The translations under genes were made by a program, and so were the position numbers. Below the pieces are notes generated by a model that was not told the origin of the DNA, made no database searches, and saw only the letters and a list, made by a program, of their open reading frames with translations. From IMG/VR virus record IMGVR_UViG_3300017722_005389: 64,000 bases of DNA, one strand, 5' to 3'. Origin of the DNA: a virus (Duplodnaviria; Caudoviricetes). Numbering within the stretch: position 1 is the stretch's first letter; each line of letters opens with the position of its first letter. Positions 7,583 through 51,444 of this stretch are shown in pieces.

Positions 7583-7975
7583 TTATTCATTTGGAGCAAT
7601 TTCACCATCAAAATCTTCAGAATCATCAGAACCTCCTAAATCTATATCATCTGGTTCCAATATTTTCCAAAAAGGGAATGGAAATATAAAAACTGACTCT
7701 GAGTCATCTTGTTTTACAGCAATCCATTGGATCTTTTTGTGACCTTCCTGGATGAGATGTTTTATTTTATCGATATATACATTAGGATTTGGTAAAATAT
7801 CTTTAGGAATATCGTAAAAATTTTTGAACATTAGTATTATATCCCCTGTGATTCCACTGTGAATCTCGATAACCCTTTTTCCTATTGAATAATTATGGTA
7901 ATATTCCAATTCTTCAATATACTCTACCAATTCTGGCGATAAATCGTAAAGTTTTCCTTTAATTTCTTTTTTCAT
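7583..7975 (-). CDS. Hypothetical protein (130 aa, acidic tail)
   Basis: Clean ORF overlapping the helicase stop codon by 1 nt. Confidence 0.7.
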   Translation of the reverse strand: MKKEIKGKLYDLSPELVEYIEELEYYHNYSIGKRVIEIHSGITGDIILMFKNFYDIPKDILPNPNVYIDKIKHLIQEGHKKIQWIAVKQDDSESVFIFPFPFWKILEPDDIDLGGSDDSEDFDGEIAPNE

Positions 7976-9777: not shown

Positions 9778-9784
9778 TATATAG

Positions 9785-9813
9785 TATTTATAAGAAAACA
9801 GTATTAATAAATA
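9785..9813. promoter_or_regulatory. Divergent pair of TATTTAT motifs
   Basis: Plus-strand copy at 9785-9791 faces the gene at 9825; minus-strand copy at 9807-9813 faces the helicase ATG at 9777. Confidence 0.5.
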
Positions 9814-9824
9814 ATAAGTTCCAT

Positions 9825-10340
9825 ATGAATATATCTCCATTAAACCATAATAACAAATTTTTTTCAGAAGAAGAATATAGGTACTATGTTGATTCTTCAA
9901 GAGAACATATGGCTTCTTTAAATACAAAGATAATATTTTATAAAGTAAATAAAGAAAAATCACAAATAGACGATTTGTATGGAGAAGCTTATAAGGAAGA
10001 AATTCAATTGAATTCACCTATTGAAATACCTGCAATAGTTAAACTAGAAGTTTCTGAAAATAAAGCCTATGCTTCGGATAAGTCAATGCTTCGATATGAA
10101 GAATATGGTAATTTGACAGCAAGTCTATTAATTTCAGATTTAGAATTGTATAACGCAAATATAACATACGGTGATTATATTGGATATAGGGTTAGTGAAA
10201 CTTTAGTCTTGTTTTTTGAAGTTTCAAATGATCAACAAAAATTTTATCAAAATAAAAATACTTTTTTAGGATATAAAAGTTTTTGGAAAACTATAACATG
10301 TACACCAATAAATAAAGGAGAGGGCTTTTTTGAATTATGA
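9825..10340 (+). CDS. Neck protein (T4 gp14-like)
   Basis: IIFYKV...DDLYGEA...P.EIPAIV...GDYIGY pattern; lies before gp15-like and sheath genes. Confidence 0.6.
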   Translation: MNISPLNHNNKFFSEEEYRYYVDSSREHMASLNTKIIFYKVNKEKSQIDDLYGEAYKEEIQLNSPIEIPAIVKLEVSENKAYASDKSMLRYEEYGNLTASLLISDLELYNANITYGDYIGYRVSETLVLFFEVSNDQQKFYQNKNTFLGYKSFWKTITCTPINKGEGFFEL

Positions 10341-14400: not shown

Positions 14401-14635
14401 TGATCAAAATGATGAAGCTGTTAGAAGAAAGTTTGAAAATAAAGTTAATCCTATTCTCGCAAATATTAGAAACGAAAGAGGTCTTATTGATTTTAAAGTA
14501 GTTCTTGATCGTTCTAATGAATCGTTTAGTTCTAATGAAATGAAAGGTAAAATTCAAATTGCGCCTACAAGAGCATTAGAATATATTAACATAGAATTTG
14601 TATTAACTCCTGCAGGTGTTTCAGTTACAAGTTAA
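11405..14635 (+). CDS. Contractile tail sheath protein
   Basis: N-terminal PSIKFTETDL..G.FLKG.AF.P; C-terminal PWFAPAG, VWGNNTL, INVRRLL, IAPTRALEYINIEF. Confidence 0.93.
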   Translation: MAISKPNLAPSIKFTETDLTFSTGRNFGVTSLGISGEFLKGRAFTPISIDNVELFTQVFGESNACKFEGTSQPIYEGVYIAKQFLKESDQLFVSRVLGLTGYDAGDAWGISFGAALDPSTVAITGTSSFTATINYVNGNVGSVSFSNSTLQDLYDAGQIANSSLGSSTLLTGDTVLVGNAFLGNCETFVGARFNMTVTNKIETYICITGETSVSETVQVPSEIQNCLVIYSGGTVTYDSTFIITVDNSVVVQNVTTNELTIVSSGFLTLVGGTITHDVDGSITIEDGSIFFPNGDVFTGGEYKICDLNDNTAVYNCETIDGINYTLTTGTTIIFNTVTSGTTQQIISQIPSGLIQLDFSGTVTELSGMPYAQYDNMVVALMRSYASYDGDEILNFQVEGNVISIESIDGGTIYPTDDFLIKGTKVNGSTFEYNVSLDKSKSNYIARVFGNFIPCCRTNNPLYVEDLFENSFNYLLDNNLVYCIKPSICYINTLDNYKEPYQGAMTPWVVSELRGNRVFRLFRVHTFTDGNAANTDIKVSITNIRPDAKTFDLQVRGYGDTDKKPVILESYSRLTFREQDNNFIGRRIGTVDGNYVLNSKYIMIELAADCLDESFPAGFEGYPVRDYDCMANPLLVYKTQYNPTDRVRQVYLGLNDVLGFDADFFDYKGRPADPDVPFWTGTTKGFHMDSNATSATVEGYGVVQFETGIHSFKNEADLAGTSYEQLIARKFTLVPFGGFDGWDIHRKRRTNTDLYTVTSSLGQKGLTSGAFDIYSSENINDGQTVINSDYYAYLEGIRSLRNRNEFRINLLATPGINTNEHSNLVEESIEMCESERCDTFYIPTTLDTDDAGQVLRVNDVVSSIQDLFDTSYAATYFPWGQFLDEVNNVFIWIPPTAEVMRVYALNDKLRRPWFAPAGVEMRTQFKQARKKLREDEMDILYTNRMNYLATFKQADGSSPVYVWGNNTLQLADTALTDINVRRLLLYTQRLIEDVGLPLLFDQNDEAVRRKFENKVNPILANIRNERGLIDFKVVLDRSNESFSSNEMKGKIQIAPTRALEYINIEFVLTPAGVSVTS

Positions 14636-30177: not shown

Positions 30178-31035
30178 ATGAAACCATTTATTTACGGAGA
30201 TATCAAAGTATCAGAATTTAATCAAAAAATTACACAATTATTAGACCCTAATAAACCACAATTATTAGGGGTAAGTCCATTTCAAAGTTATAAATGGGTT
30301 TTAGCAGTTTTGGCAGAACTCGGAATCACTTTACCTGAAGATATAGATTCAGCTTGGGTATTATTTACTAAAATTAATGATGTAAGTATGAGATATATCA
30401 ATAAAGATGTATTTTCATTAGGAATTCAAAGTTCTTTTGACAATGCTTTACTTTCAAAAGAAATAAAAAGTGGTTCTATTGTATTTGGTTATTTTCCTGG
30501 ACATCCTTATGTTTTTAGGTCAATAGATAAAATGATCACAAATGTGATTTCACCTGTAAAAATTTTTCAATTAAATAGATTCTTAAAAAGAGATGATAAG
30601 GTAAATTTAAATACATCTGAAAGTGACTTTGGTTTTTTTGATACAACTCCTATGAATAAAATGGTTTTTTCTGAAAAGGGGTATAAAGAAAAATGGGAAG
30701 ATGTTGATAATAAAATTTTGATAAATAAAAAATTACCATTTGCACCTATAAATCACGTTGGGATATATTATAACGGTCATTTTTTTAATTTAACATCTAC
30801 TTTAACTGTTGAAGCTCCTGAAGCATTTAGAGCTGTAGCATTCTATAATTTTAAGAATGGATTTTTAAAGGTTAGAGAACTTTTAGGTGATATTAGAGAT
30901 GCTGTAAATACTGCAAATGACATAGCCAATGAAATAAAAAATGATGTTAGAGTTGTAAATAATGAATTTAATAGAATTGGGAACCTTACTGGCATTGAAG
31001 ATGTTAATAAGGTAATCAAAGATATTAACTTCTAA
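30178..31035 (+). CDS. NlpC/P60-fold protein with catalytic Cys replaced by Ser
   Basis: FQSYKWVLAVLAELGITLP, KSGSIVF and NHVGIY align in register with DCSGFV..VY...GISLP, PGDLVF and HVGIY. Confidence 0.5.
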   Translation: MKPFIYGDIKVSEFNQKITQLLDPNKPQLLGVSPFQSYKWVLAVLAELGITLPEDIDSAWVLFTKINDVSMRYINKDVFSLGIQSSFDNALLSKEIKSGSIVFGYFPGHPYVFRSIDKMITNVISPVKIFQLNRFLKRDDKVNLNTSESDFGFFDTTPMNKMVFSEKGYKEKWEDVDNKILINKKLPFAPINHVGIYYNGHFFNLTSTLTVEAPEAFRAVAFYNFKNGFLKVRELLGDIRDAVNTANDIANEIKNDVRVVNNEFNRIGNLTGIEDVNKVIKDINF

Positions 31036-33806: not shown

Positions 33807-33843
33807 AGGTTCTCATTTTTTTATAAGGTGAGAACCTTTTTTA
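33807..33843 (+). terminator. Intrinsic terminator
   Basis: AGGTTCTCA-13 nt-TGAGAACCT followed by a T run. Confidence 0.75.
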
Positions 33844-33855
33844 TATTTTAAAATT

Positions 33856-34356
33856 ATGGATTTACATACATTAAATAAAAAAATTTTAAAAGGCGTTAGC
33901 TTAGAAGATGGAGATTTCAGAAATAATGCTTTAGAAGCCTTAATAAAAATTTATGAATCTGGAGCAGAATTCAAAAAAAGTAAGCTTCATGGCTCAGATA
34001 TTGATTTAGATTTTATTTCTGCAGATATGTCAAATATTGCATCATATATGTTTACAATAGGAATGGCAAAATCTATATCTAAAACACTTTTAGAAAACTC
34101 ACAAGCTGTAGCTGACAGAAAATTATATGATACCGATAGAGAGTATTATAAAAATTCGTCTAAATCTTCTACTATTCATACTACAAACATAAGGGGTATG
34201 GATGAGGTTAGACCATTCTTTCAATTATATTATCTTTTCAATGAGTTATATGAAGATTTAAATAGGCTTTTTGAAGGCTTAAGATCTATTTCCTCCAATA
34301 GAAGATTTGAGATTGAAAAAGGATTGATTGATTATACCATTAGAAAAAAGAAATAA
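33856..34356 (+). CDS. Hypothetical helical protein (weak UvsY-like resemblance)
   Basis: 166 aa; ends ...LRSISSNRRFEIEKG; follows the SSB-like gene. Confidence 0.5.
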   Translation: MDLHTLNKKILKGVSLEDGDFRNNALEALIKIYESGAEFKKSKLHGSDIDLDFISADMSNIASYMFTIGMAKSISKTLLENSQAVADRKLYDTDREYYKNSSKSSTIHTTNIRGMDEVRPFFQLYYLFNELYEDLNRLFEGLRSISSNRRFEIEKGLIDYTIRKKK

Positions 34357-34388
34357 CAATATTTTATAACCAATTTAAATTATTTATT

Positions 34389-34628
34389 ATGCTTGAAGAA
34401 ATTTTAGAACTTTATTCTGAAGAAGAATTATTGATTGCAGATGGATTTAATGATGCCATTATAGGTATCGATGGAAATTCGTTAAGAATTATCTATTCCG
34501 TAACAAAATGTATTGAAATTCTAATGAAAGATATGCCTGAAGAAGATGCATTAGAATATTTTAGTTATAATGTATCTGGTGCATATGTAGGTGAAAAAAC
34601 CCCTATATGGTGTGAAGATAATTTTTAA
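34389..34628 (+). CDS. Conserved small phage protein of unknown function
   Basis: ADGFNDAIIG...YS..KCI.IL...EDALEYF.YNV.GAYVGEKTPI pattern. Confidence 0.75.
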   Translation: MLEEILELYSEEELLIADGFNDAIIGIDGNSLRIIYSVTKCIEILMKDMPEEDALEYFSYNVSGAYVGEKTPIWCEDNF

Positions 34629-34644
34629 TGTTCCACGTGAAACA
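34629..34644. promoter_or_regulatory. parS: parS-consensus centromere-like palindrome
   Basis: TGTTCCACGTGAAACA matches the consensus TGTTNCACGTGAAACA exactly; intergenic. Confidence 0.8.
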
Positions 34645-34653
34645 ATTTGAAAA

Positions 34654-35775
34654 ATGAAAACTTTATTAGTAGATGGAAACTCCTTGTTCAAAAATTCTTT
34701 TGAAGCCACAAGCAATACAAAAGAATATGAAAAGAATATCAACGGAGTTTTACTTTTTTTATCAAAATTAAGATCTATTGTTGATTCAGATCGGTACTCT
34801 CATCTTAAAGTAGTCTTCGATGGAGAAAAAAGTGGCTCCTTAAGAAGAAATCTCTATTCTGCGTATAAACTTAAGCGAGAAGAAAGAAAATTGAATGCAG
34901 AGGAAACTGAAAAGAATCAGAAATATAAATCTCAAAAGGAGGAGTTAAAATCCTACCTGAAACATTTCTGCTTAGTTTATGAAGATAAAGTTGTAGAAGC
35001 TGATGATGTTATTGCTTATTATGTAAGAAATAAACCTTCAAATGAAAAAATAACAATTGTCACTGGAGATTTTGATTTGCTTCAATTAATTTCAAAAGAT
35101 GTAGATGTTTATTATCTGAATAAAAAATTCAAAAATAAGACCAGGGAGGTTGAAAGATATGAAAAAGATAAAGATAGAGTTCATCTAATAATAGATCATA
35201 AAAATTTCAAAAAGTTTTATGGGTTTCCTTATGAGAATATTGCTATAATTAAAACAATTTGTGGCGATGAATCTGATGAAATAAAAAATATAAAGGGTAT
35301 AAAAGAAACAACATTATTCAATTTATTTCCAGTTTTAAAAGAAAAAGTTTTAAATTTAGAAGAAATTAAACATATTTGTTTGAACTTTGTTAAAAATGCT
35401 GATGTTATCTCCAGTGACAAAGAAAAATTTTCTTTATTAAAGGAAGATTTGAAACAAAAAGGTTTAAAATATCAATCGATGTATAATTCATACCAGAATA
35501 TTTTAAATGGTATTACAGATGGAGTACAAGGAAATAATATTCTTGAAATAAATAAAAGGATTGTTGACTTGTCAAATCTTGAATTTATTACAAATGAATG
35601 TATATTAAATCTAAAGAACTTAAATTATTTTTCTGATGAAAAAATTGAAGCCAAAGATGCAGCTGAAATGATTTCGAAAATGAAAAAAACTGGAATACAC
35701 GATGTCATAGTCGATAAATATAAATCAATTAATTATTTCTTTAAACCCTTTAAAAAAACTTTTAAAAATGCGTGA
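34654..35775 (+). CDS. 5'-3' exonuclease / RNase H (FEN-like)
   Basis: LLVDGNSL, VFDG, R...Y..YK..R, EADDVIA, TGDFDLLQL and GDESD.I..IKGI motifs. Confidence 0.92.
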   Translation: MKTLLVDGNSLFKNSFEATSNTKEYEKNINGVLLFLSKLRSIVDSDRYSHLKVVFDGEKSGSLRRNLYSAYKLKREERKLNAEETEKNQKYKSQKEELKSYLKHFCLVYEDKVVEADDVIAYYVRNKPSNEKITIVTGDFDLLQLISKDVDVYYLNKKFKNKTREVERYEKDKDRVHLIIDHKNFKKFYGFPYENIAIIKTICGDESDEIKNIKGIKETTLFNLFPVLKEKVLNLEEIKHICLNFVKNADVISSDKEKFSLLKEDLKQKGLKYQSMYNSYQNILNGITDGVQGNNILEINKRIVDLSNLEFITNECILNLKNLNYFSDEKIEAKDAAEMISKMKKTGIHDVIVDKYKSINYFFKPFKKTFKNA

Positions 35776-36859
35776 TTACACAAGGAAACCTAACAGGTTC
35801 ACATTTAGATTACTTTACAATGATGAAATAGTAACTTCTTCAGAAAGAGATTTTGATGCTCCATTTCCAGAGGAATTCAATTTATCAAAATTATTAGACA
35901 AAAAAATCCATTTGAAGGTAGATGATTCTGTAATGAATCATGTTAATTACACTAATACTTTTGAAAATTCATGGGAAGCTATAGAATTAGGAGAAGCTGT
36001 TTCAGAAATTTTTAGACTTATTTTAAGAAATGGTACTGAACAGTATCTTTATAACCTTAATAGGTCTGAAAGAACGTTGTTGCTCGGAGATATGATGTCG
36101 ATATCTGATGCTAATAAAACTATTAAGACTGAAAATAGTGCGACACAAGAATTGGTTGGTTATAGACAAAATGTTAACAATTGGTTCAAACAAAAAAATA
36201 ATAAGTACACATTCGTAATTATTGATAGACGTTCTTTAGTAAGAAGAGATAATGGGATGTTTAACGATTTGAAGGATCTGAATAACAAAATCGATGTACT
36301 TAGAGAAAAAGCTCAATACGGAAAGATTACAAAAGAAGAATTAGATATACTCAAAAGTCTTGAAAAAACGCTTCAGAGTAATTACTACGAAAGAGAAATT
36401 TTTAGGTATTCTATAAGTGCAGATGATTTTTCTTATAATGGAACTACATTTGTACCACCAATCGGAGTTATTTGGAAAGATTTCAATACTAGTTTTAATT
36501 CTCCTAATGAAGACATGAGAAGTTCTATTGAATACCATGATATTTCTGAATTCTCATCATTTTCTGAAAGAGCTATGAATTTAAGATTTAAGCTCCAGGT
36601 TATGAGAAATGCTCATCAAGAGGTTGAAAAGATGGGGGATAACATCAAAACAGCTTCAATCGAGAAAGATATCAGAAAAGTCGAATCTGAACTCATTAAG
36701 GTTGAAAATACCTACTTTAAAGGAATCCGAACTTTAATCAAAGAATATATAAATATGGATTCATACGAAAATAGGTTTTTATACCAAAGAAGTAAAAATA
36801 ATAATTACACTGTCAACAGTTCAGAAAAAGAGATAATTGAAGAAGCTATAATGATCTAA
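35768..36859 (+). CDS. Hypothetical protein
   Basis: 363 aa ORF overlapping the exonuclease end. Confidence 0.75.
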   Translation: MRDYTRKPNRFTFRLLYNDEIVTSSERDFDAPFPEEFNLSKLLDKKIHLKVDDSVMNHVNYTNTFENSWEAIELGEAVSEIFRLILRNGTEQYLYNLNRSERTLLLGDMMSISDANKTIKTENSATQELVGYRQNVNNWFKQKNNKYTFVIIDRRSLVRRDNGMFNDLKDLNNKIDVLREKAQYGKITKEELDILKSLEKTLQSNYYEREIFRYSISADDFSYNGTTFVPPIGVIWKDFNTSFNSPNEDMRSSIEYHDISEFSSFSERAMNLRFKLQVMRNAHQEVEKMGDNIKTASIEKDIRKVESELIKVENTYFKGIRTLIKEYINMDSYENRFLYQRSKNNNYTVNSSEKEIIEEAIMI

Positions 36860-36870
36860 AAAATAAAATT

Positions 36871-36899
36871 CCCTTTCTTAAAAGAAAGGGTTTTTTTTT
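36871..36899 (+). terminator. Intrinsic terminator
   Basis: CCCTTTCTT-AA-AAGAAAGGG followed by T9. Confidence 0.75.
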
Positions 36900-36962: not shown

Positions 36963-39446
36963 ATGAAGCATTTTGAAGATAAAAATATAGGATTAGGTTT
37001 TTTTGGTGAAGAATATGAATTAAAAGTTTTGAACTTAATTATAGGTTCTAAAGAAGTTAAGGGAAATGGTGTTGTAAGGGATGATTCATTTGGTCGCAAG
37101 ATAATAAATAAACTTTCTTCGGAGCATTTTACAAATACATTGGCACAAAGACTTGTTGTATCAATGAAAAATCATTATAAAGTAAATAATAAAATACCTT
37201 ATTATGATACAATAAAAGAAAGGATTTTAGCTAATGCCCAAAATGAATACGATAGAGAGCTTTTTATTGAATATTTGAGGGATATTCAAAAATCTCATAT
37301 TGAAGAGCCTAAATGGGTAAAAGATAATCTTGTAAACTTTATAAATTCTAAGAACGTATTTTCTTGTTTGGATGAAATTAAAGCATTAGTTATTCAAGGA
37401 AAATATGAAAAATTCAATGAAATACCTACACTTCTTCAGAGAAATATAATTTCTGATGTAGATGAAAATCCTTTGGAGGCATTTGTTCCTGGCGATTATC
37501 GACATTTGGAAGAAGGAGAAAGACATCCTATTCCTACAAAGATATCCGCTTTGGATTCTGATATGAATGGTGGATTAGCTTATGGAGAATTTGCGTTGTT
37601 TATTGCGCCTTCAGGTGCTGGAAAAGCTCAACCTCATTTTTGCAAGATTTACACTCCTAATGGATATAAAACATTTTCAGAAATTAAAATAGGAGATGAA
37701 ATTTTAGGGTCTGATGGTAAATGTCAGAAAGTATTAGGAGTATATTCTCAAGGAAAAAAAGAATACTATAAAGTATCTTTTACTGATAATACATATACAT
37801 ATTGCTGTAAAGATCACTTGTGGAATGTAAAAACTAAAGATGATATTACTCATAAAAAAGAGACTTATCGAACCTATTCTCTTGAAAAAATAATGGAAAA
37901 TTATAAAACAGGGAGTGGAGCTTCAAATTATAGAATACCAAGAATTCCTTTTGCAGATTTTAACAATACTGATAATTTAGATATTCATCCATATTTGTTA
38001 GGGGTTTTAATTGGAGATGGTTCATTATGTGGTAACTTTGGGATATCAAATGGTGATCAACAATTGTTAGACAAAGTGATTGAAATTCTTGGTGAGGAAT
38101 ATGAATTGGTAAAAAGAAATAAATATGATTATAGAATTAAAGACAAAAATAAACATAAAGCAAATAGATTAAAAAATTTAGTAGAAGCAGAAGGTCTTCT
38201 CGGAAAAAAGTCTTACGAAAAATTTATTCCTAAAAAATATTTGTTTGCTTCATATGAAAATAGATTGGAACTAATTAGAGGTTTAATAGATACAGATGGA
38301 TATATTGGAAAAAAAGGTAAGATTACATTTACATCTACATCTAAAAATTTAGCTGAAGAATTTAGATTTCTTGTTTTATCAGTCGGTGGATATTCTGGTC
38401 AAATTTTAGAAAAACAAAAATTTTACACTCATAAAGGTGAAAAAAAACGTGGAAGAATTTCTTATGATGTATGTGTGTCATTTAATGATGATATAAAATT
38501 GGTTTCATACATAACAAGAAAGCAATCAAGATATATTCCAAGAGATCATTATAAAAATAATAAAAGTATAAAAAATATATCTTTAGAAGGTGTTGATGAA
38601 TGTATTTGTATTAAAGTTTCTAATGAAGACCAGTTATATGTTACAGATGATTTTATTTTAACACATAACACCACATTTTCTACATATGTAAGTAACAATG
38701 CTGCAAAAGATGGTTATAATGTTCTTCAGATATTTTTTGAAGATACTGAAGAACAAATCAAAATGAAGCACGTTGCAAAGCTTATTGGTAAACCCATTAA
38801 TTTTTCTTCAAATAAAAAGAATCGTAAAGTTGTAATTAAAGAAACCGATGATAAGCTCAGAAAAATAAGTGAAAAAGGTGGAAGTCTGGTATTACATTCA
38901 ATGGATTCTACTGAAACTACTGTTGAAGATATAAAAAATCTTTATATCAGAGCACAAGAACAAGGTGTATATTTTCCAGATACAGGTGAATACAGAAAAA
39001 TTAAATTTGACTTAGTAATTATTGACTATTTAGATTGTATAAAACCTAAAAAGAATTACAGTTCTGTATGGGAAGGTCAATCTGAAATTGCAAGAGACCT
39101 TGAGAAGTTATGTGGAAAAGACCAACTTAATTTTGCATGTTGGTGTTTCACCCAAGGAACCAAAGCTTCTTTGAATGCAAAATTGGTTACAGGTGAACAA
39201 ATGGGAGGTGACTTTGGAAAATATAAAGTTGCTCACTTTGTAGCTTCTCTTGCAAGAACTTTGGAACAACAGTCAATGTGTAAAGCAACATTTTCTATTC
39301 TGAAAAGTCGTTTTGGCAGATCTGGTATCATATATCAGGATTGCATCTTTGATAATGCAAACTTAATTATTGAAATGGAGAAAGAGGAATTTCACACAGA
39401 TAAAGTAGTGAACGACATTTTAGTTGGAGCTACTGATGAAGATTAA
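36963..39446 (+). CDS. dnaB: DnaB-like replicative helicase, intein-containing
   Basis: Walker A APSGAGK|TT split by the intein; QIFFED, LVIIDYLD, TQ and KSRFG motifs; 479 aa after splicing. Confidence 0.9.
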   Translation: MKHFEDKNIGLGFFGEEYELKVLNLIIGSKEVKGNGVVRDDSFGRKIINKLSSEHFTNTLAQRLVVSMKNHYKVNNKIPYYDTIKERILANAQNEYDRELFIEYLRDIQKSHIEEPKWVKDNLVNFINSKNVFSCLDEIKALVIQGKYEKFNEIPTLLQRNIISDVDENPLEAFVPGDYRHLEEGERHPIPTKISALDSDMNGGLAYGEFALFIAPSGAGKAQPHFCKIYTPNGYKTFSEIKIGDEILGSDGKCQKVLGVYSQGKKEYYKVSFTDNTYTYCCKDHLWNVKTKDDITHKKETYRTYSLEKIMENYKTGSGASNYRIPRIPFADFNNTDNLDIHPYLLGVLIGDGSLCGNFGISNGDQQLLDKVIEILGEEYELVKRNKYDYRIKDKNKHKANRLKNLVEAEGLLGKKSYEKFIPKKYLFASYENRLELIRGLIDTDGYIGKKGKITFTSTSKNLAEEFRFLVLSVGGYSGQILEKQKFYTHKGEKKRGRISYDVCVSFNDDIKLVSYITRKQSRYIPRDHYKNNKSIKNISLEGVDECICIKVSNEDQLYVTDDFILTHNTTFSTYVSNNAAKDGYNVLQIFFEDTEEQIKMKHVAKLIGKPINFSSNKKNRKVVIKETDDKLRKISEKGGSLVLHSMDSTETTVEDIKNLYIRAQEQGVYFPDTGEYRKIKFDLVIIDYLDCIKPKKNYSSVWEGQSEIARDLEKLCGKDQLNFACWCFTQGTKASLNAKLVTGEQMGGDFGKYKVAHFVASLARTLEQQSMCKATFSILKSRFGRSGIIYQDCIFDNANLIIEMEKEEFHTDKVVNDILVGATDED
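37626..38669 (+). mobile_element. Class 3 intein with LAGLIDADG homing endonuclease (348 aa)
   Basis: Starts AQP and ends ILTHN before Thr; WCT triplet (HLW, ECICI, THN); LGVLIGDG and RGLIDTDG motifs. Confidence 0.93.
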
Positions 39447-39513
39447 ATTTTTTAACAAATTTTTTAATTTACTATTCAGATTTAGCTTCTATTTATTTAA
39501 ACAAATCAAAAAC

Positions 39514-40464
39514 ATGAAAGAGAAAATTTTAATTGAGAACAAGGATCGTTATGTTATTTATCCAATAAAACATCCTGACATATGGGATTTTTATAAAACA
39601 GCACAGGCAGCTTTTTGGATTGCTGAATCAGTTGATTTATCAAAAGACCTAGATGATTGGGAAAAACTGAATGACAATGAGAAGTTTTTTGTCAAGAATG
39701 TAATATCATTTTTTGCTGCAAGTGATGGTATAGTAAATCACAATATTGCACACAACTTTATTAATGAAGTTCAATATCCAGAAGCAAGCTTCTTTTATGG
39801 ATTTCAAATAGCAATGGAAAATATTCATAATTTGATGTACTCATTGTTAATTGATACATATGTAAAAGATATCGATGAAAGAGATGAGTGTTTTAAAGCA
39901 ATTGAAAAATTGCCTATTGTAAAAAAGAAAGCCGAATGGGCACTCAAATGGATTGATTCAGATTCTTTTGCCGAAAGATTGATTGCATTTGCTGCAGTTG
40001 AAGGTATATTTTTTTCTGGTTCATTCTGCTCAATCTTTTGGTTAAAATCAAGAGGTCTTATGCCAGGACTTTGCCAAGCGAATTCATATATCAGCAAAGA
40101 CGAAGCATTACATACTGATTTTGCAATTCATCTTTACAATAATCATGTGGAATATAAAGTTTCTGAAGAAAGAGTAAAAGAAATCATTCTTTCAGCATAT
40201 GAAATTGAAAATGAATTTATAAATGATGCACTTCCAGTTTCACTCATAGGGATGAATCAAACCCTTATGACACAATATATCCAATTTGTAACAGATCAAC
40301 TTTTGATTCAATTTAGATGTAAACCTGTTTTCAATGTAAGACAACCATTTGACTTTATGATGCAGATTGCAATGAAAGCCAAACAAAACTTTTTTGAAGG
40401 AAGACCTACTGAATATAAAAAAGCAGATTTGTCAGGCTCAATCTCATTTGATGAAGAATTTTAA
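39514..40464 (+). CDS. nrdB: Ribonucleotide reductase class I beta subunit
   Basis: FFAASDG, ENIH..MY, VEGIFFSGSF, DEALH and NFFE..PTEY motifs. ATG 39514 chosen; TATTTAT at 39490-39496. Confidence 0.95.
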   Translation: MKEKILIENKDRYVIYPIKHPDIWDFYKTAQAAFWIAESVDLSKDLDDWEKLNDNEKFFVKNVISFFAASDGIVNHNIAHNFINEVQYPEASFFYGFQIAMENIHNLMYSLLIDTYVKDIDERDECFKAIEKLPIVKKKAEWALKWIDSDSFAERLIAFAAVEGIFFSGSFCSIFWLKSRGLMPGLCQANSYISKDEALHTDFAIHLYNNHVEYKVSEERVKEIILSAYEIENEFINDALPVSLIGMNQTLMTQYIQFVTDQLLIQFRCKPVFNVRQPFDFMMQIAMKAKQNFFEGRPTEYKKADLSGSISFDEEF

Positions 40465-40487
40465 TAACAAATAAACCAAAGAAATTT

Positions 40488-42803
40488 ATGAACAAAATGG
40501 AAATCGTTAAAAGGAACGGAAGTACAATGGAGTTTAATCCATCTAAAATATTGACAAGAATAAAAAAACAATCTGAAGGATTGAAAGTAAATCCAGATGA
40601 ATTATTTATTAAGGTTACTCAAGGAATTGGAGATGGTATCACCACAAATCAGATTGACGATTTGATTACTATCACTGCGGATTCTTTATCTCATAAGCAT
40701 TCAGACTATTCAAAACTGGCTGCAAATATTTTTATTTCAAGACTTCATAAGGAAACTGAAGAAAACTATTTTAAGCTTATAAAGAGGTTAAAAAACAATG
40801 GAATTGTTAATGAAACCTTATATAATAAAGTAAAGGAAAATTTCGAAGTTATACAAAAAGCTATTGATTATAGTCGTGATTATATGTTTGACTATTTTGC
40901 ATGCTCTCGTTTGAAAGAAATTTACCTTCTTAAGGAAAGAGATGAAATTGTCGAAAGACCACAACATATGTACATGCGAGTTGCTTTGACTGTTACAGAA
41001 ACAATTGAAGATGCGCTTAAATATTATGAGTTAGTTTCAACACATAAAATTTCCCCTGCAACCCCAATTTCGATTAATGCTGGGACCAATGATCAAAGCA
41101 TGATTTCTTGCAATCTAACAATGAGCAAAGGAGATAATACACCAGATTTGTTAAAAACTCTTGCGAATATTTCTATATCTTCTTCAAGGGCTGAAGGAAT
41201 AGGTCTTGCATTACATAATATAAGAAGTAAAGAATCTTATGTTGGTAAAGGTGGAGGAAAAGCAGGTGGTCTTTTGAAGTATATAAAAGTTGTTAACGAA
41301 TCCTTAAGATTTTGGAATCAAAAAGGTAAAAGACCAGGTGCTGCAGCAGTTTATTTGGAACCTTGGCACAAAGATGTAGCAGACCTTATAGAAATCAGAA
41401 AAGAAGGGGCTGATGAACTTAGAGCAAGAGATATGTTTGCTGCACTTTGGATTCCTGACAATTTTATGAAAGCTGTTGAATCTGATGGAGATTGGTATTT
41501 GTTCTGCCCAAATGATCTTCTTAAGAATAGAATAAAACCTCTTTGGGAAGTCTATGGTGAAGAATATGAAGCAGAGTACAATAAAGCAGTTGCATTAGGT
41601 ATTGGTAACAAAATTAAAGCTCAAAGTCTTTGGAAGAAAATTCTTGAGGCTCAGATTGAGACAGGTGTACCTTATATGACATACAAAGACCATGTTAACC
41701 ATAAAAGTAATCAGCAAAACATTGGTACTATCAAATCTTCAAATTTATGCGCAGAGATTAACTTATATAGCGATGCTGAAACTACAGCACAATGCGTTCT
41801 TTCTTCATTAGTATTACAGAAATTTGTCAATAATAAAGTTTACGATTTCAAAGGATTATATGATGCTGCATATGAAGTTGTAAAATCTTTAAACGTTTTG
41901 ATTGATGTAAACGATTTTTCAACTGAAGAAGCCAGAAAGGGTGCAACTGATCAAAGAGCTTTAGCAATAGGTGTTCAAGGTCTTGCAGATACTTTTGCAT
42001 TGATGGGATATGCATTTACTTCTGAAGAAGCTAAAAAATTGAATAAAGATATATTTGAAACAATTTATTATGCTTCATTGAAATCTTCATGTGATTTAGC
42101 AAAAGAAAAAGATGAAACCTATAAGTTTTTTAAAGATTCACCATTTTCTAAAGGAATTTTACAATATGACATGTGGAATGTAACAGAATTATCTGGTCTT
42201 TGGGATTGGGATTCTTTGAAAGAAGATATCATAAAATACGGTGTCATGAATTCAACTTTAACTTCGACTATGCCAACAGCATCAAGTGCATCAATTATTG
42301 GCAGCACTGAAGCAATTGAGCCATTTTTCAGTAACATGTATATCAGAAAAGTTATTGGTGGAGAGCATATCGTTATTAACAAATATTTGATACAAGATTT
42401 GGAAGAATTAAGTCTTTGGAATGAATATATCAAAACAGAAATTATAAAAAATGATGGTTCTATCCAGGATATAAATCTGATTCCTCAAGAAATCAGAGAA
42501 AAGTATAAGACTGTTTATGAAATTTCTCAAAAGGAACTTATAAATATGTCTGCAGAACGTGCGCCTTTTATCGATCAATCCCAAAGCTTGAACATCTTTA
42601 TGAAGAATCCAACTGTAGGCAAACTAACTTCTTCTCATTTTCATGGATGGAGGCTCGGATTGAAAACTGGGCAATATTATCTTAGAACAGATGCAATCAC
42701 AATGTCAAGAAAACAATTGGCAATTGACGTTAAAACTGAAAATGAAGACACGTTAAAGAAACCTGAAAATTCACCTTTTGAATGTTTTGGATGTTCGGCA
42801 TAA
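40488..42803 (+). CDS. nrdA: Ribonucleotide reductase class I alpha subunit with ATP cone
   Basis: IVKRNG ATP cone, SNLCAEI, PTASS, QSQSLN, GQYYLR and C-terminal CFGC. Confidence 0.97.
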   Translation: MNKMEIVKRNGSTMEFNPSKILTRIKKQSEGLKVNPDELFIKVTQGIGDGITTNQIDDLITITADSLSHKHSDYSKLAANIFISRLHKETEENYFKLIKRLKNNGIVNETLYNKVKENFEVIQKAIDYSRDYMFDYFACSRLKEIYLLKERDEIVERPQHMYMRVALTVTETIEDALKYYELVSTHKISPATPISINAGTNDQSMISCNLTMSKGDNTPDLLKTLANISISSSRAEGIGLALHNIRSKESYVGKGGGKAGGLLKYIKVVNESLRFWNQKGKRPGAAAVYLEPWHKDVADLIEIRKEGADELRARDMFAALWIPDNFMKAVESDGDWYLFCPNDLLKNRIKPLWEVYGEEYEAEYNKAVALGIGNKIKAQSLWKKILEAQIETGVPYMTYKDHVNHKSNQQNIGTIKSSNLCAEINLYSDAETTAQCVLSSLVLQKFVNNKVYDFKGLYDAAYEVVKSLNVLIDVNDFSTEEARKGATDQRALAIGVQGLADTFALMGYAFTSEEAKKLNKDIFETIYYASLKSSCDLAKEKDETYKFFKDSPFSKGILQYDMWNVTELSGLWDWDSLKEDIIKYGVMNSTLTSTMPTASSASIIGSTEAIEPFFSNMYIRKVIGGEHIVINKYLIQDLEELSLWNEYIKTEIIKNDGSIQDINLIPQEIREKYKTVYEISQKELINMSAERAPFIDQSQSLNIFMKNPTVGKLTSSHFHGWRLGLKTGQYYLRTDAITMSRKQLAIDVKTENEDTLKKPENSPFECFGCSA

Positions 42804-42865: not shown

Positions 42866-43054
42866 ATGGGATTTTATAATATTAGAAGCTGTCCTGCTAA
42901 CCAAGCTTGTAGAAGAAAAGACGTAAGAAATTCACTTTTAAGACAAAACGATATTGAATCACAAACAATTCTCAATATCTTAAAAGATTGTTGGGAAACA
43001 CCATCAGGCAGTTGTTGGCAAACTGCTTCTGGAAGTTCTTGGCGAGTAGCTTAA
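42866..43054 (+). CDS. Small Cys/Trp protein (62 aa)
   Basis: Follows TATTTAT; C-terminal CWETPSGSCWQTASGSSWRVA matches the tail of 15932-16201. Confidence 0.7.
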   Translation: MGFYNIRSCPANQACRRKDVRNSLLRQNDIESQTILNILKDCWETPSGSCWQTASGSSWRVA

Positions 43055-43074
43055 TCAATTTAAATATTTTATAT

Positions 43075-43458
43075 ATGGCGAACCAAAATAATCTTGGAAT
43101 TACCTTTCCATATCAGGAAGATTTAACAGGTAAATTCTTAAGATTAAATCAAAACGATAAAGAAGAAATAAAAAGTAAATTAGCTCTTTTGATAACAACA
43201 CAAAAGGGTCAAAGACTTTTTAACTCAAATTTTGGAATTAATATTGAACAATTCCTATTTCAACCTATGGATGAGCAAACGTATAATGCCATACGAGATG
43301 AAATCACTGCTAATGTTACAAGATATATACCTTCATTGAAAATTGAAAGTATTCAAACGGATGTTAGCGAATCTCAAAAATTAGTAGGTCTTCAAATACG
43401 ATACTCAATTTCTGATGGAGTTATTAAGCAAACAGATGAACTTGCTATTTTATTCTAA
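43075..43458 (+). CDS. Baseplate wedge protein (T4 gp25/GPW-like)
   Basis: GITFP, EIKS.L.LLITT.KG.R.....FG..I..FLFQP...YIP.LKI motifs; ATG 43075. Confidence 0.88.
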   Translation: MANQNNLGITFPYQEDLTGKFLRLNQNDKEEIKSKLALLITTQKGQRLFNSNFGINIEQFLFQPMDEQTYNAIRDEITANVTRYIPSLKIESIQTDVSESQKLVGLQIRYSISDGVIKQTDELAILF

Positions 43459-44861: not shown

Positions 44862-47800
44862 TTAGAACATTTCAAATTCTTTGGTCATATTCATATAATA
44901 GTTTAAATCTTCTGAAGAATCTTTAAGTTGACATTGGATAAGTTCTTCTTCAGTCATATCTTCATAATGCTTATCGGATATATCAATTTTTCTTAAAGGC
45001 TGGATTTCATATCCTTCAATTTCTTTGGGATACATAGAAGCAAATTTATACAAATATTCATTTCCACCTTTAATCTTTTTAACTCCAACCCTTTGGAAAT
45101 CAAAATAGTCATGAACTAATTTTATAGCATTCCTCGATTCGAGTTTATACATTCCAAGAATTGGAAGTTTACTTCTTAGTTCATTTATTTTTCTAGTAAT
45201 TTCTGTATTTGAGATAACAGCGTTTTCTTCAAACTTTTTATTAGCCCACTCCTCAAATTTCCAAGTGAAAGTTGCCACTTCATTAACAACTTTTATACCT
45301 CGTATGGCATAAAACAACCCTGCATTTTCAAGCCTTTCTTCAACATCAAAATATGATTTGATAATTTCTAAAGTGCGATGTTCACTTTCTGAAGAAATAT
45401 TTAGCTTTCTAAAGATGTCATTTAATATTTTGTTAATATCTGAAATGGTATAAAGTACAAAGGAGCCTGTGGCTTTTTCTTTCTCACGATTTTTCTTATA
45501 GAATTTTATAAGATGTTTGGCAATTTCTGATGAATTGTCCACAGCCTTACTAAAAGCATTAATTTTTTTAGTTATTTGAACATTAATTTGTCTAACAATC
45601 TTACTCCAAATTCTATCACTCATATTATGCTCTTTAATCCATTTTTCAACAAGTTCACATGAATCTTCAAAAGATAACGAGTTGCATAAATATTTTATTT
45701 TTGTCCTTAATTTTACTTGATATTGAGCCCTTGGGAGTGATTCAAGGTTAAATACAACATCATCTTTTACTTTATTACAACATTCAACCTCTCCTTCAAT
45801 TTTTATTTCTTCAAGGATTTTTAATACATCTTGAACAAGCATTTCTTTCCTTTCAGATTTCAATGTCTTAAGATTTGACTGTTCCTCTGGATGTATTTCC
45901 TCAAGAACAAACATTTCTTCTTTAAACTGCCAATTATATTCATGAAGCAATACCTTCATAAATTCAAAATTCTTGTTGGCATAGCGTTTTTCTTCAATAT
46001 AAGCCATATTGGCTATACTCAAATAGTCAATTTCCCAAACTCCATCCCTAACTCTATAAAGTTTACTTTTACCAAATAATTGTTGATTGAATACTTTTAT
46101 AGCAGATTTATAACTTACACTATCACCTGTTACATATGCCTTATTGAAAAGTTCTTTTCCAATATTGGCATTTTTAATATAGTTCTCTTGAAGATTAACA
46201 ATATCAATATGGTCAGTTTCAGACATATCTTCTGAATCCAATGGCTTGTAAACATAAATCATCGAGTTATTCTCAACACTTTTCGTGAAAATGTTTCTCA
46301 ATCGATTTACCATTTGCTCCATATTTGTAGCACTTTCGGCTGTCATAAAATGAACCGATTTAAAATCATTATTATAGATATTAACACCCTCTACAATAAC
46401 TGAAGTACAAATGACAATATCAACATTATCTCTGATTAATTCCTTTGTTGTGAGTATAGTAAAATCCTCACTATTTTTTTCATCAGCATTAATACATACA
46501 ATACGATCCTTCTTCCAACCTTTCATCACCAAATAATCAATCAATTCACCCATTTTACCTTCTTCCTTTTTATTCTGAAGATAAATCAGATTTTTACCAT
46601 TTCTACTAAGATTTTTTTCAATAGCAAATAAAATATTGTTATATCTTACAGGAGTGCAATATTTGATTGGCGTTTTTTCCCAATTTACTCTTATAATATC
46701 AAAATTTTTGAATGCTGGGTGAAGAACAGGGATTTTTGTACCAGTTAAAAACATTCTTTTTCTAAAAAGATGCATGTTGTCTACAATGTAGTTCAATTCA
46801 TATCCTCGGAATTCAGGGCTTGAACTAACTGCATTATTATGTTCCTCATCAACATACAAAGCATAATCCGAAATCTTAACATTTTCCCAATTTTTCATTT
46901 GTTTCAAAAGATTTGGAAAACTGCTGTAAGTACATACGATAAGTTCATCCCCTTCTTGTACATTCTTTTTATCCCTATAATAAACTGATGCATTATAGGA
47001 ATTGTCTATACTCAAAAGTAAAGGTATAATTGGAACCAGAATAAGCCTTTTACCTTTTATGTGTTCACAAATCCAAGTTGTCTTACCTTGACCTGTGTTA
47101 CCCCATATAATTTGGTTATCTTCATCAGGAATATTAATTTCATTGATGTATTGCCCAGGTTTCAAAAAATATTCTTTTGTAATTTTATATCTTGAACGAA
47201 TTTCCTGTGGAGTGATATTTCTAAATATTCTTACACCAAACTTCCAAGAATCTTGGGTATAACATTCATCAGCTAAAAATTTTATAATAGGGATCAGATT
47301 GCTGATAAAATGTTTTTTCTCTGAATAAGTGATATTATTATCAATTTTAATAAAATCTTCAAAAGAATATTCTATAATTTCATTTAGAAATGTATAAGCT
47401 GTCTCTTTGATTATGGCGTGTCCTTTCGTTTGCTTGAAATAATATCCAATATATGAAAATACATTATCATAGGAAATAGTATGATAGATATTGGCAGCTG
47501 TTTCTAATATATTCTCAAGAGTTTTTTCAAGCTTTCCTTCGAATTTATATTTTATAACGACTCTATATCCATTAGTTACAGCCCAGCTTTTATAAGATTC
47601 AAGTTTCTTTGATTTACCTTCTTCAGATAAAACTTTTACACATCCGAACAAATAGTCTGAATTGCCATATATTTTGTCAATAGTAGGATATAAATTATCA
47701 TTAAAATTTAGTACGGATTCAAGATAATCTATTACAGGTTTTTTGGTAATACCTGCTTCTTTTGCAAGAATCGCCATTCTATAGATTTTCTTATTATCAT

Positions 47801-48908
47801 CTCCACTTTTTTCTTTAATATTGAACCAGATGTAATCTAACTTTAATTTTATATCCCCATCATATTTTTTATATAAACCATATATTTCATGCCCTTCTTC
47901 ATTTTTTACTGCTCTGACACCAAATTGATGTCCATAATATTTTTCAATGTTGTTGAGAATCCCATATCTTACTTCTTCAACGCTTCTATGTTTAAAAATC
48001 TTTGGATATTTTTCTTGATTTAAAATCAAATAGTTTAAGCTTTCATTCAAATCAATACCCATTTGATTACAAAATACAAAGTAATCGAAAAAGAACTTGT
48101 ATGAAATATGATTATTACTCCAAGAGCCAGGCTTATGATAAAGTGAATGTAACTGGTATGCCAAAACATCTGAAGCTAATTCCAAAGGAAGTCCATCTGT
48201 TACAATAGGAGTATAAATATTTTCTTTAGGTTGAACAGCATCAAATGGAATAATTTCCGATTCTTCTCTCACAAAAATATTTGGATCGTAAGGAAGAACA
48301 TTACATCTTGTAATATCTTTAGTCTGAGGGTCAATATTGATATTCCAACCGCTGAAAAGATTTGATATAGCTTTCCAAGTTGTGCTGAAATTTTCCAAAG
48401 AAAGCCCTTCTACCTTCACAAGAAATCCTAAACCTTCTCCAGAAAAAGAATCCCAAGCAGCCTTTACAAATTTTAGATTTTCTGAAGAAAGCAAATTTTT
48501 TATGTAAGTCTTTGCTTGTTCTGAAGATGTAAAATTTTTGACTTCGGATATTTTAGTGAAATCATCAATATCAAAATAGATATAACCCGATGGTGCTTGT
48601 ATTTTATCTTTGGTACGTTTTTCTTCTACAAAGCAATTCCATGTAACAACATATGATTCTTGTTGCTTCACATGATTGTAGAAGTTTCTTTTGACATAGT
48701 CTAATTTGGATACAGAACGATTCCAAACTCTATCATTATAAATCAAATTAAGATTTTTCTTTCCACCATTGACTGGATCATTTTTACATTCAAGAATTAA
48801 ATGTTTCTTTGGGTGGTCTTTAATAAATCCTAATGCTTCATCGATTGTGAACTCATTAATAGGTTTAGAACTTTTGTCGAGGCATTGAAATACGGAAATC
48901 TTTTCCAT
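44862..48908 (-). CDS. AEP (BT4734/VirE-N-like) primase domain fused to an origin-binding-type SF2 helicase
   Basis: N-terminal SGYIYFDIDD, SFSGEG and DPQTKD..R...YDP; central GNTGQGKT, VDEEH, LTGT, TSVIVEGVNI and QMVNRLR. ATG 48908 lies 20 nt after TATTTAT. Confidence 0.7.
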   Translation of the reverse strand: MEKISVFQCLDKSSKPINEFTIDEALGFIKDHPKKHLILECKNDPVNGGKKNLNLIYNDRVWNRSVSKLDYVKRNFYNHVKQQESYVVTWNCFVEEKRTKDKIQAPSGYIYFDIDDFTKISEVKNFTSSEQAKTYIKNLLSSENLKFVKAAWDSFSGEGLGFLVKVEGLSLENFSTTWKAISNLFSGWNINIDPQTKDITRCNVLPYDPNIFVREESEIIPFDAVQPKENIYTPIVTDGLPLELASDVLAYQLHSLYHKPGSWSNNHISYKFFFDYFVFCNQMGIDLNESLNYLILNQEKYPKIFKHRSVEEVRYGILNNIEKYYGHQFGVRAVKNEEGHEIYGLYKKYDGDIKLKLDYIWFNIKEKSGDDNKKIYRMAILAKEAGITKKPVIDYLESVLNFNDNLYPTIDKIYGNSDYLFGCVKVLSEEGKSKKLESYKSWAVTNGYRVVIKYKFEGKLEKTLENILETAANIYHTISYDNVFSYIGYYFKQTKGHAIIKETAYTFLNEIIEYSFEDFIKIDNNITYSEKKHFISNLIPIIKFLADECYTQDSWKFGVRIFRNITPQEIRSRYKITKEYFLKPGQYINEINIPDEDNQIIWGNTGQGKTTWICEHIKGKRLILVPIIPLLLSIDNSYNASVYYRDKKNVQEGDELIVCTYSSFPNLLKQMKNWENVKISDYALYVDEEHNNAVSSSPEFRGYELNYIVDNMHLFRKRMFLTGTKIPVLHPAFKNFDIIRVNWEKTPIKYCTPVRYNNILFAIEKNLSRNGKNLIYLQNKKEEGKMGELIDYLVMKGWKKDRIVCINADEKNSEDFTILTTKELIRDNVDIVICTSVIVEGVNIYNNDFKSVHFMTAESATNMEQMVNRLRNIFTKSVENNSMIYVYKPLDSEDMSETDHIDIVNLQENYIKNANIGKELFNKAYVTGDSVSYKSAIKVFNQQLFGKSKLYRVRDGVWEIDYLSIANMAYIEEKRYANKNFEFMKVLLHEYNWQFKEEMFVLEEIHPEEQSNLKTLKSERKEMLVQDVLKILEEIKIEGEVECCNKVKDDVVFNLESLPRAQYQVKLRTKIKYLCNSLSFEDSCELVEKWIKEHNMSDRIWSKIVRQINVQITKKINAFSKAVDNSSEIAKHLIKFYKKNREKEKATGSFVLYTISDINKILNDIFRKLNISSESEHRTLEIIKSYFDVEERLENAGLFYAIRGIKVVNEVATFTWKFEEWANKKFEENAVISNTEITRKINELRSKLPILGMYKLESRNAIKLVHDYFDFQRVGVKKIKGGNEYLYKFASMYPKEIEGYEIQPLRKIDISDKHYEDMTEEELIQCQLKDSSEDLNYYMNMTKEFEMF

Positions 48909-49023
48909 TATATGTTTGATTTGTAAAAATAAATAGAGAGCGAGAGCCAACAAAAATAAAATTAGCAGGACTTTAACAGATAAAGTTTCTCAAATGTTTT
49001 AACCCTCAGAAATTAAAAAAAGT

Positions 49024-49620: not shown

Positions 49621-51444
49621 ATGCAAAAGAAGATAAATTATTATACAAGAGATTTTAATGGTATAAGAAGTGAACTTATAAATTTCACCAAAAAACATTT
49701 TCCAACTACCTATACAGAGTTTGATGATGCTTCAATCGGTATGTTACTTATCGAATTGAATGCTGCAGTTGCGGATATGCTTTCTTTTAATATTGATAGG
49801 GTAGCTCAAGAGAATTTGCTTGAACATGCTCAAGAAAAAAGATCATTGATGTCTTTAGCAAGAACTTATGGATTAAAGATTCCTTTCAAAAGACCTTCTA
49901 TTACTATTTGTGATTTTTCTGTTGAAGTCCCTGTTAATGGAGATTCATTTGATTTAACATATGCACCATTTTTATCTAGAGGGGCACAAGTAATTGGTGG
50001 TGGTCAAAAATTTGAATCTTTGAACGATATAGACTTTTCATCACCATTTTCAGCAAACGGAACTCCTAATAGAATTATAATCCCAAATGTAGATAACACT
50101 GGAGACATTTCATCATATACTTTGAAAAAACGTGAATTGGTAGTCGCAGGTGAAACCAAGTTTTATAAAAGAGTTATCAGTTCTGCAGACTCAGTTCCAT
50201 TTTTAGAGATTGATTTGCCAGATAATGATATTTTATCAGTTGATTCAGTAATTTCTTTAGATGGCACAGATTATCAAAGGAACCCAACTTTATCAGAGCA
50301 AGTAAACCCAAATAATCTTTGGTATTCGGTAGAATCTTTAGCTGAAAGCAAAATTTTTATTGAGCAACCATTACTTTCTTCAGACAAACCAGGAGTTTTA
50401 GTTGGAAAATGGGAATATATCTCAAGAAGGTTTATGTATGAATTTTCTGATAGAGGATATGTAACAGTGAGATTTGGAAATGGGGTTCAAGATACATCTG
50501 CATCAAGTCAATATCTTACAAATTCAGATATATTTTTAGAACAAATTCAGAATTATGTGTTAGATAACTCACTAGGAGATATTCCAAAAGCAAATTCTAC
50601 ATTATTTTTAAAATATCGTGTAGGTGGAGGTGCCTCAAGTAATATAGGTATTAACACTTTGACAAGTTTAGGCATTTACAATATCTTTGTACCAGGACAA
50701 AATCCGACTATTAATCAAAGGGTGAAAAATTCTTTGAAGGTAAATAACCCTTTACCTGCTTTTGGAGGTTCAGACCAGCCTTCTATTGAAGAAATGAGAA
50801 ATATTATAAGATATAATTTTGCAGCACAAAACAGATGTGTAACTTTAAAAGATTATTATAGTAGAATTTATCAAATGGGTGGTAAATTTGGTGTGCCTTA
50901 TAAGGCTGCCGTTGCGAAAGTTAATAATAAAGTAGAAATTTCAATATTAGGTATTGATGCGAATGGAAAATTGACCAATAGCTCAACAAGTACTATGAAA
51001 GAAAACATTTCAACTTATTTGGAGAAATACAAACTTCCAAATGACTATGTTTCTGTTAAAGATGGAAAAATTCTTAATATCGCATTTGAATTTGATTTAT
51101 TCGCAGATCCGAATTTCAATAGAAACGAGATAGCTTCTGAAGTGATAAATGCTACCAACAAATATATACAAGAACAAAAACTGATAATGGGGCAAGACAT
51201 TTACTTGTCACAACTCATCGAAATTGTAAATAATATTGGGGGTGTATTAAATGTTATCAGTTTTAGAATTTACAATAAAGTAGGTCAAGGTATTTATTCA
51301 TTGAATCGAACAGGTCAACCATTATCAGATGCTGCTACTGGAGAAATTAATCTTCTTGGGCAGAATGCGATTTTTTCACAATATGATGAAATTTTCGAAA
51401 TAAAATATCCTGAAAAAGATATAAGAGTAAGATTCTCCGCATAA
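49621..51444 (+). CDS. Baseplate wedge protein (T4 gp6 / baseplate J-like)
   Basis: Y.TRDF..IR.ELI, V.FGNG, Y.VGGG..SN, GG.D.PSIEE.R and QNRCVT..DY motifs. Confidence 0.9.
   Translation: MQKKINYYTRDFNGIRSELINFTKKHFPTTYTEFDDASIGMLLIELNAAVADMLSFNIDRVAQENLLEHAQEKRSLMSLARTYGLKIPFKRPSITICDFSVEVPVNGDSFDLTYAPFLSRGAQVIGGGQKFESLNDIDFSSPFSANGTPNRIIIPNVDNTGDISSYTLKKRELVVAGETKFYKRVISSADSVPFLEIDLPDNDILSVDSVISLDGTDYQRNPTLSEQVNPNNLWYSVESLAESKIFIEQPLLSSDKPGVLVGKWEYISRRFMYEFSDRGYVTVRFGNGVQDTSASSQYLTNSDIFLEQIQNYVLDNSLGDIPKANSTLFLKYRVGGGASSNIGINTLTSLGIYNIFVPGQNPTINQRVKNSLKVNNPLPAFGGSDQPSIEEMRNIIRYNFAAQNRCVTLKDYYSRIYQMGGKFGVPYKAAVAKVNNKVEISILGIDANGKLTNSSTSTMKENISTYLEKYKLPNDYVSVKDGKILNIAFEFDLFADPNFNRNEIASEVINATNKYIQEQKLIMGQDIYLSQLIEIVNNIGGVLNVISFRIYNKVGQGIYSLNRTGQPLSDAATGEINLLGQNAIFSQYDEIFEIKYPEKDIRVRFSA

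Follow-up and report, generated by a model that had tools for sequence, protein, structure and literature searches.

The window, i.e. the whole 64,000 nt stretch of DNA analysed here, has a GC content of ~29% and belongs to an uncultured freshwater myovirus. A near-identical contig measures 275,468 bp and the genome was taken as ~275 kb, which is jumbo size; the source phage is a large, T4-related jumbo myovirus. Genes for a tail sheath (positions 11405-14635), a gp25-like protein (42988-43458) and a baseplate wedge (49621-51444) were found in the window, as was a replication and nucleotide-metabolism module. This module comprises a family-B DNA polymerase (PolB, 1949-6262, minus strand), a helicase (7975-10017, minus strand), a 5'-3' exonuclease/flap endonuclease (FEN), an intein-bearing DnaB (36963-39446), RNR (39424-42803, with the large subunit at 40488-42803) and an AEP-primase-like gene (44862-48953, minus strand). 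A search for tRNAs found none. The PolB ORF is 1437 aa long and Pfam covers only an exonuclease domain at residues 391-564 and a polymerase domain at residues 871-948, a patchy cover that suggests big insertions or strong divergence.

Inteins vary among these phages. A LAGLIDADG/Hint intein of ~1.06 kb lies at 37609-38667 in the DnaB-like helicase gene and is precisely missing from a 90%-identical relative (L004); DnaB is also intein-free, at 475-478 aa, in the distant relatives L255, L459, L461 and L462. The DnaB intein is thus a presence/absence polymorphism. The large subunit of RNR is intact in the window, and inteins or split genes were seen in this subunit or its neighbours elsewhere in the group (L009:15848-20233, L257:11374 onward, L462:13032-16700); intein content differs widely within it.

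The FEN gene is the third of a four-gene unit on the plus strand. The unit begins with a 166-aa gene without a family match (33856-34356), which is kept in all related lineages whether or not they carry the site described below and is 52% identical to its homologue in L255. It is followed by a 79-aa accessory gene (34389-34628; phrog_13182, E = 7e-20), by FEN itself (34654-35775, 373 aa; PF02739, E = 4e-26) and by a 363-aa gene (35768-36859), which is the last of the unit and is syntenic in all lineages. Terminator-like hairpins with T-runs lie at both ends on the plus strand, one at 33807-33837 ending the upstream transcription unit and the other at 36871-36890 ending the four-gene unit.

Inside this unit, the spacer that separates the 79-aa gene from FEN contains TGTTCCACGTGAAACA at 34629-34644 (hereafter parS-1; not assigned to a strand), which matches the chromosomal parS consensus TGTTNCACGTGAAACA at 16/16 positions. 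It begins right after the TAA of the 79-aa ORF, whose stop ends at 34628, and 9 nt separate it from the ATG of FEN at 34654, which lies directly 3' of it; the whole spacer is 25 nt. A reading made earlier from the sequence alone had placed a parS consensus 16-mer at this position, 9 nt before an exonuclease ATG and within the replication cluster of a large T4-like phage, and our analysis bears out the sequence, the position and the setting. At one mismatch or fewer, the window has no copy besides parS-1, and the sole match at two mismatches (12022) falls within the tail sheath gene. Under a first-order Markov model of the window, 5.8e-5 chance matches are expected per 64 kb on both strands, close to the earlier estimate of ~1e-4. 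However, ~250,000 windows were scanned overall, for which tens of chance matches are expected, and a lone match is therefore not beyond chance by itself. At this scale a single match is not decisive, so relatives had to decide. The window DNA had no nucleotide match in the phage collection, the nearest record stops 188 nt before parS-1, and a scan of metagenomes matched one fragment.

Sigma-70-like promoters were no commoner in the window than in shuffled sequence, and an overlap of the site with a promoter is therefore not supported. Moreover, GC skew across the window has no turning point close to parS-1 and simply tracks gene orientation; the skew had earlier been put forward as a check for a nearby origin, and it yields no origin signal.

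The near clade was surveyed in 19 contigs including the window, drawn from JGI, ENA, Logan and IMG/VR, of which the 18 others are near-identical to it; L004, at ~90% nucleotide identity, was taken as an additional sequence. parS-1 is present in all 19 contigs and in L004 (20/20). Its recurrence in 19 further near-clade contigs from these separate assemblies speaks against an assembly chimera, which had been raised beforehand as a way in which the site could prove spurious. When two IMG/VR contigs of 98% identity were searched with one mismatch allowed, another site appeared, TGTTCCACGTGGAACA (parS-2), 286 bp upstream of parS-1 in the spacer between the 166-aa and 79-aa genes. Its sequence is the C5/G12 variant with full symmetry, and in most near-clade genomes the 79-aa gene lies between both sites. 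The claim that there is no second copy therefore stands for the haplotype of the window but fails for the clade, as parS-2 is intact in 15 of the 19 contigs, the window counted.

Alignment of the window to its relatives shows what became of parS-2. Where the window has GAAAT|AACAAT (scar at 34351-34360, not assigned to a strand), its relatives have GAAATAA(A/G)T-TGTTCCACGTGGAACA-AT, and this corresponds to a clean 16-nt deletion at 34354/34355 that leaves the last four bases of parS-2, AACA (34355-34358). The identical deletion is found in the window, L237, L240 and L243, all from different samples. Haplotypes with one site and with two occur side by side in lake metagenomes. As judged from these alignments, the ancestral state in the window's species is two sites around a small accessory gene, and the window haplotype has lost one of them. 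All 20 near-clade sequences keep at least one site although one site can go, a pattern that fits redundancy under selection.

Conservation within the near clade is uninformative alone, since the probability of neutral retention relative to L004 (90% nucleotide identity) is ~0.19. Syntenic loci in more distant phages were found through FEN homologues of 60%, 59%, 57% and 48% identity. A search with the exact consensus TGTTNCACGTGAAACA matches only the clade at 90% identity or above; once position 12 is set to N, TGTTCCACGTGGAACA is recovered in relatives of ~60% identity, and the view that the site is specific to the near clade was rejected on this ground. In the near clade (FEN 90-98%) the order is the 166-aa gene, parS-2, the 79-aa gene, parS-1 and FEN. 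In P0004/P0006 (L009-L013, FEN 59-60%) a 168-aa gene is followed by the site, 30 nt, a 79/81-aa gene and FEN, the site being syntenic with parS-2. P0002 (L459, FEN 60%) has a 166-aa gene, an unrelated 142-aa gene and then TGTTCCACGTGGAACA in the spacer upstream of FEN, 16 nt from its true ATG at 3501, and so on the far side of an accessory gene that is unrelated. The remaining lineages have no site at the junction: P0007 (L255, FEN 57%) carries a 169-aa gene, an unrelated 187-aa gene and FEN without a junction site, P0012 (FEN 45%) has none at the junction, P0009/P0010/P0013 (FEN 48%) have none within 13-21 kb and the outgroup P0022 (FEN 36%) has none within 21 kb. The wider group can therefore do without the site.

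When the near clade is compared with P0004/P0006, TGTTCCACGTGGAACA is identical at 16/16 positions, whereas the 50 spacer bases that flank it are only 42-52% identical and synonymous third positions in the gene that follows agree at 56-61%. The probability that the 16-mer was retained neutrally over this distance is ~3e-5 or less. The lineages that carry the site form an unresolved polytomy in a FEN tree, where distances of 0.74-0.89 amino-acid substitutions per site separate them. Either an ancestral site with losses or repeated gain could account for this distribution, and both histories would imply selection. The sequence-only reading had named absence from syntenic relatives as grounds for dismissing the site; instead, the 16-mer persists at one shared junction in three lineages whose flanks have diverged. 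Full identity between such flanks, together with a third lineage at the same junction, indicates a sequence held by selection and not by drift, and the site is very probably a selected functional element. Judged by its sequence, parS-1 is a genuine host-type parS above chance.

Two further matches were noted in relatives. In L255, AGTTCCACGTGGAACA at 1448-1463, 4.5 kb upstream, matches at 15/16 positions. It falls within the homologue of the window gene at 30178-31035, where Ser-Ser-Thr-Trp-Asn codons at a conserved Ser-Ala/Thr-Trp motif make up the sequence, and could be either a site that has moved or a side effect of the coding sequence. A match with one mismatch in L461 has a broken CACGTG core and was taken as chance.

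Between the 166-aa gene and FEN lies a hotspot for accessory genes (34357-34653 in the window; compared in L009, L012, L255, L459 and L014). Depending on the lineage it holds the 79/81-aa gene, the unrelated 142-aa gene, the unrelated 187-aa gene or nothing. The site itself does not travel with the 79-aa family, as 80 other viral loci with members of 41-70% identity have no parS-like site at two mismatches or fewer within 1.5 kb and L459 pairs the site with an unrelated gene instead. Among the local neighbours no phage gene co-varies with the site, the 166-aa and 363-aa genes being present in all lineages regardless. The site marks a junction where accessory genes turn over.

Plasmid and prophage ParABS cassettes have a parA-parB operon beside the centromere. 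Here the neighbours are the 166-aa, 79-aa, FEN and 363-aa genes, and Pfam or PHROGs scans of ~40 ORFs found neither ParA nor ParB, in agreement with the earlier observation for the window. A six-frame search for ParB_N in near-identical IMG/VR contigs, which span the window and reach 17.6 kb beyond it upstream and 3.7 kb downstream, was also negative; in control genomes this search does pick up ParB. Altogether, the search for partition genes covers ~85 of roughly 275 kb.

Next to the question of a partner protein stands that of the host. Bacteroidota account for almost all of the bacterial relatives closest to the phage RNR large subunit, Flavobacterium is the host of the nearest cultured phages, and an SD-like motif precedes only 3 of 44 genes, low SD use being characteristic of Bacteroidota. 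On these three grounds the host phylum is likely Bacteroidota; the -33/-7 promoter pattern of Bacteroidota was not enriched in the window. Five genomes of this candidate phylum (G002-G006; loci L016, L026, L027, L040 and L033) each contain one ParB and, at one mismatch or fewer, just one compact cluster of 1-3 parS-type sites, versus 0-1 matches to the control. In four of the five, one or both of the two phage variants occur exactly, the exact-match sites being TGTTCCACGTGGAACA, TGTTCCACGTGAAACA or TGTTTCACGTGAAACA, and the two variants of the phage are therefore variants of the candidate host phylum. Bacteroidota chromosomes thus share with the phage the C5 and G12-or-A12 variants. In G002-G005, which have parB and parS on one contig, the parS cluster lies 1.6-3.4 Mb from parB by coordinate (in G003, parB is at 1.51 Mb and parS at 4.92 Mb), unlike many model bacteria, in which parS sites adjoin parB.

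Sites of this kind are not confined to the phages studied here. Among the matches listed, more than 119 IMG/VR contigs contain the parS consensus pattern, many with 2-10 copies, and at least 120 contigs carry the single 16-mer TGTTCCACGTGGAACA (L096-L175 and L259-L338 for the two patterns together); several contigs have 4-10 copies. The reversed control pattern occurs in 20 contigs in the whole IMG/VR collection. parS 16-mers are thus strongly over-represented in viral contigs, which supports non-randomness and no particular mechanism. Plasmids, flanks of prophages or elements that encode a ParB may be among these contigs.

Taken together, the conservation of the site and its match to Bacteroidota variants suggest that a ParB-family protein probably binds it, and for the identity of that protein we lean, with some reserve, towards the host's own ParB. 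In such a case host ParB dimers would bind the palindrome, close as a CTP-dependent clamp and slide onto the adjoining DNA of the replication genes, so that a partition-type complex would assemble on each phage genome. This complex could link phage DNA to host ParA or SMC and so serve in positioning, in compaction or in carriage through divisions during a stalled or carrier-state infection; amplified phage genomes could also soak up ParB. The earlier reading also raised that spreading ParB may repress the downstream exonuclease operon. Binding by ParB and every consequence downstream of it are our inference. Against these steps, each genome has just 1-2 sites and they lie within a transcribed operon, where traffic of RNA polymerase could limit the accumulation of clamps. 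A role in partition is also less obvious because phages of the T4 type usually break down the nucleoid of their host. The probable hosts, Bacteroidota, do not sporulate, and entrapment in spores is therefore an unlikely explanation here. As a tentative proposal, which we would not yet back over its alternatives taken as a whole, lytic jumbo phages of non-sporulating, Gram-negative Bacteroidota may keep a host centromere for positioning by host ParABS/SMC or for carriage through divisions, i.e. pseudolysogeny without partition genes of the phage, with the site turning over by duplication and loss at an accessory hotspot. Were this so, the excess of parS 16-mers across IMG/VR would imply that phages commonly hijack host ParB and that this strategy has gone largely unrecognised.

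Other readers of the site are conceivable. A ParB-family protein encoded elsewhere in the ~275 kb genome (ParB, KorB, Noc or a ParB-nuclease type) could read the sites as part of a system of the phage's own. Large phages often carry genes with a ParB_N domain, and the ~85 of roughly 275 kb searched leaves room for one. Against this, the window and its extensions contain neither ParB_N nor ParA, none of the linked genes varies together with the site, and the sites are the exact chromosomal variants of Bacteroidota, whereas plasmid and phage ParBs usually use private parS sites such as those of P1 or sopC of F. A phage-encoded reader is the chief alternative, but we consider it unlikely. Quite improbable, in our view, is a palindrome kept for a cause unrelated to ParB, either as a recombination or insertion site at the junction or as the operator of a phage regulator, its identity with parS then being coincidental. 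Its position exactly at a variable slot, which holds a 79-aa, 142-aa or 187-aa gene or none, and on either or both sides of it, speaks for such a cause. A coincidental 16/16 match in two variants, both of which occur in candidate host chromosomes, would be very improbable, however, and no copy was found at any other variable junction in the 85 kb. As for an operator, the distance to the downstream ATG is 9, 16 or 30 nt, which gives no fixed geometry of operator and promoter, and no regulator gene co-varies with the site.

The location within an operon, 9 nt before the FEN start, would also suit a role at the level of RNA, as a hairpin, attenuator or translational operator. However, the local fold (-5.6 kcal/mol) is no better than that of shuffled sequences (z = -0.18) and the palindrome is not paired with itself in the MFE structure, and the conserved copy in relatives precedes a different gene at other distances. 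By this folding and variable placement an RNA hairpin or terminator is effectively refuted, and any such role is highly improbable. Lastly, the site could be a functionless chance occurrence, a single 16-mer in one window among the ~250,000 scanned, and the neutral retention of ~0.19 relative to L004 does nothing to counter this. It is refuted by the further site that most genomes carry at a distance of 286 bp, by a 16-mer unchanged (16/16) between lineages with flanks of only 42-52% identity and by the site's presence at this junction in a third lineage, and we give chance next to no credence. The reading that we favour thus remains binding by a ParB-family protein, the host's own by preference.

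Precedent comes from the Bacillus phages phi29 and Nf, which have parS sites of the host type. phi29 has five, bound by the host protein Spo0J, which takes part in segregation of the phage genome into the prespore (PMC2731898, summarising Meijer et al. 2005). In this case a virulent phage that lacks a ParB employs the partition protein of its host on its own DNA, and the principle is therefore already described. phi29 is a 19-kb podovirus whose benefit is entrapment in the spore of a sporulating Firmicute; the phage studied here is a T4-related myovirus of ~275 kb with one or two sites at one locus and probable non-sporulating hosts, so that any benefit would have to be a different one. In the literature searched, no paper was found on parS of the host type in jumbo phages or in phages of Bacteroidota. 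New relative to phi29 are the type of phage, the probable non-sporulating host, and the duplication and loss of sites at a variable junction.

The chromosomal ParABS-SMC centromeres, such as Spo0J/parS of B. subtilis and ParB/parS of Caulobacter, in which ParB acts as a CTP-gated sliding clamp, share the 16-bp palindrome with the phage. On the phage, however, it lies within an operon of replication genes and adjoins neither oriC nor parAB. Partition cassettes of plasmids and prophage-plasmids (P1 parABS, N15 sopAB, F sopABC, RK2 KorB) likewise put a centromere-like palindrome on a mobile replicon. They encode ParA and ParB of their own beside private centromeres, whereas neither gene occurs in the 85 kb covered here and the phage sequence is that of the chromosomal consensus.

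Should host ParB indeed load on this phage, the strategy of phi29 would not be peculiar to spore-formers. It would reach giant T4-related phages of aquatic Bacteroidota, in which it would have to serve another purpose, be it positioning or compaction of the genome, carriage through divisions or titration of ParB, and it would link phage infection to the biology of ParB-CTP clamps and SMC. The numbers of IMG/VR contigs, more than 119 and at least 120 against 20 for the control, suggest that such sites are widespread and under-described.
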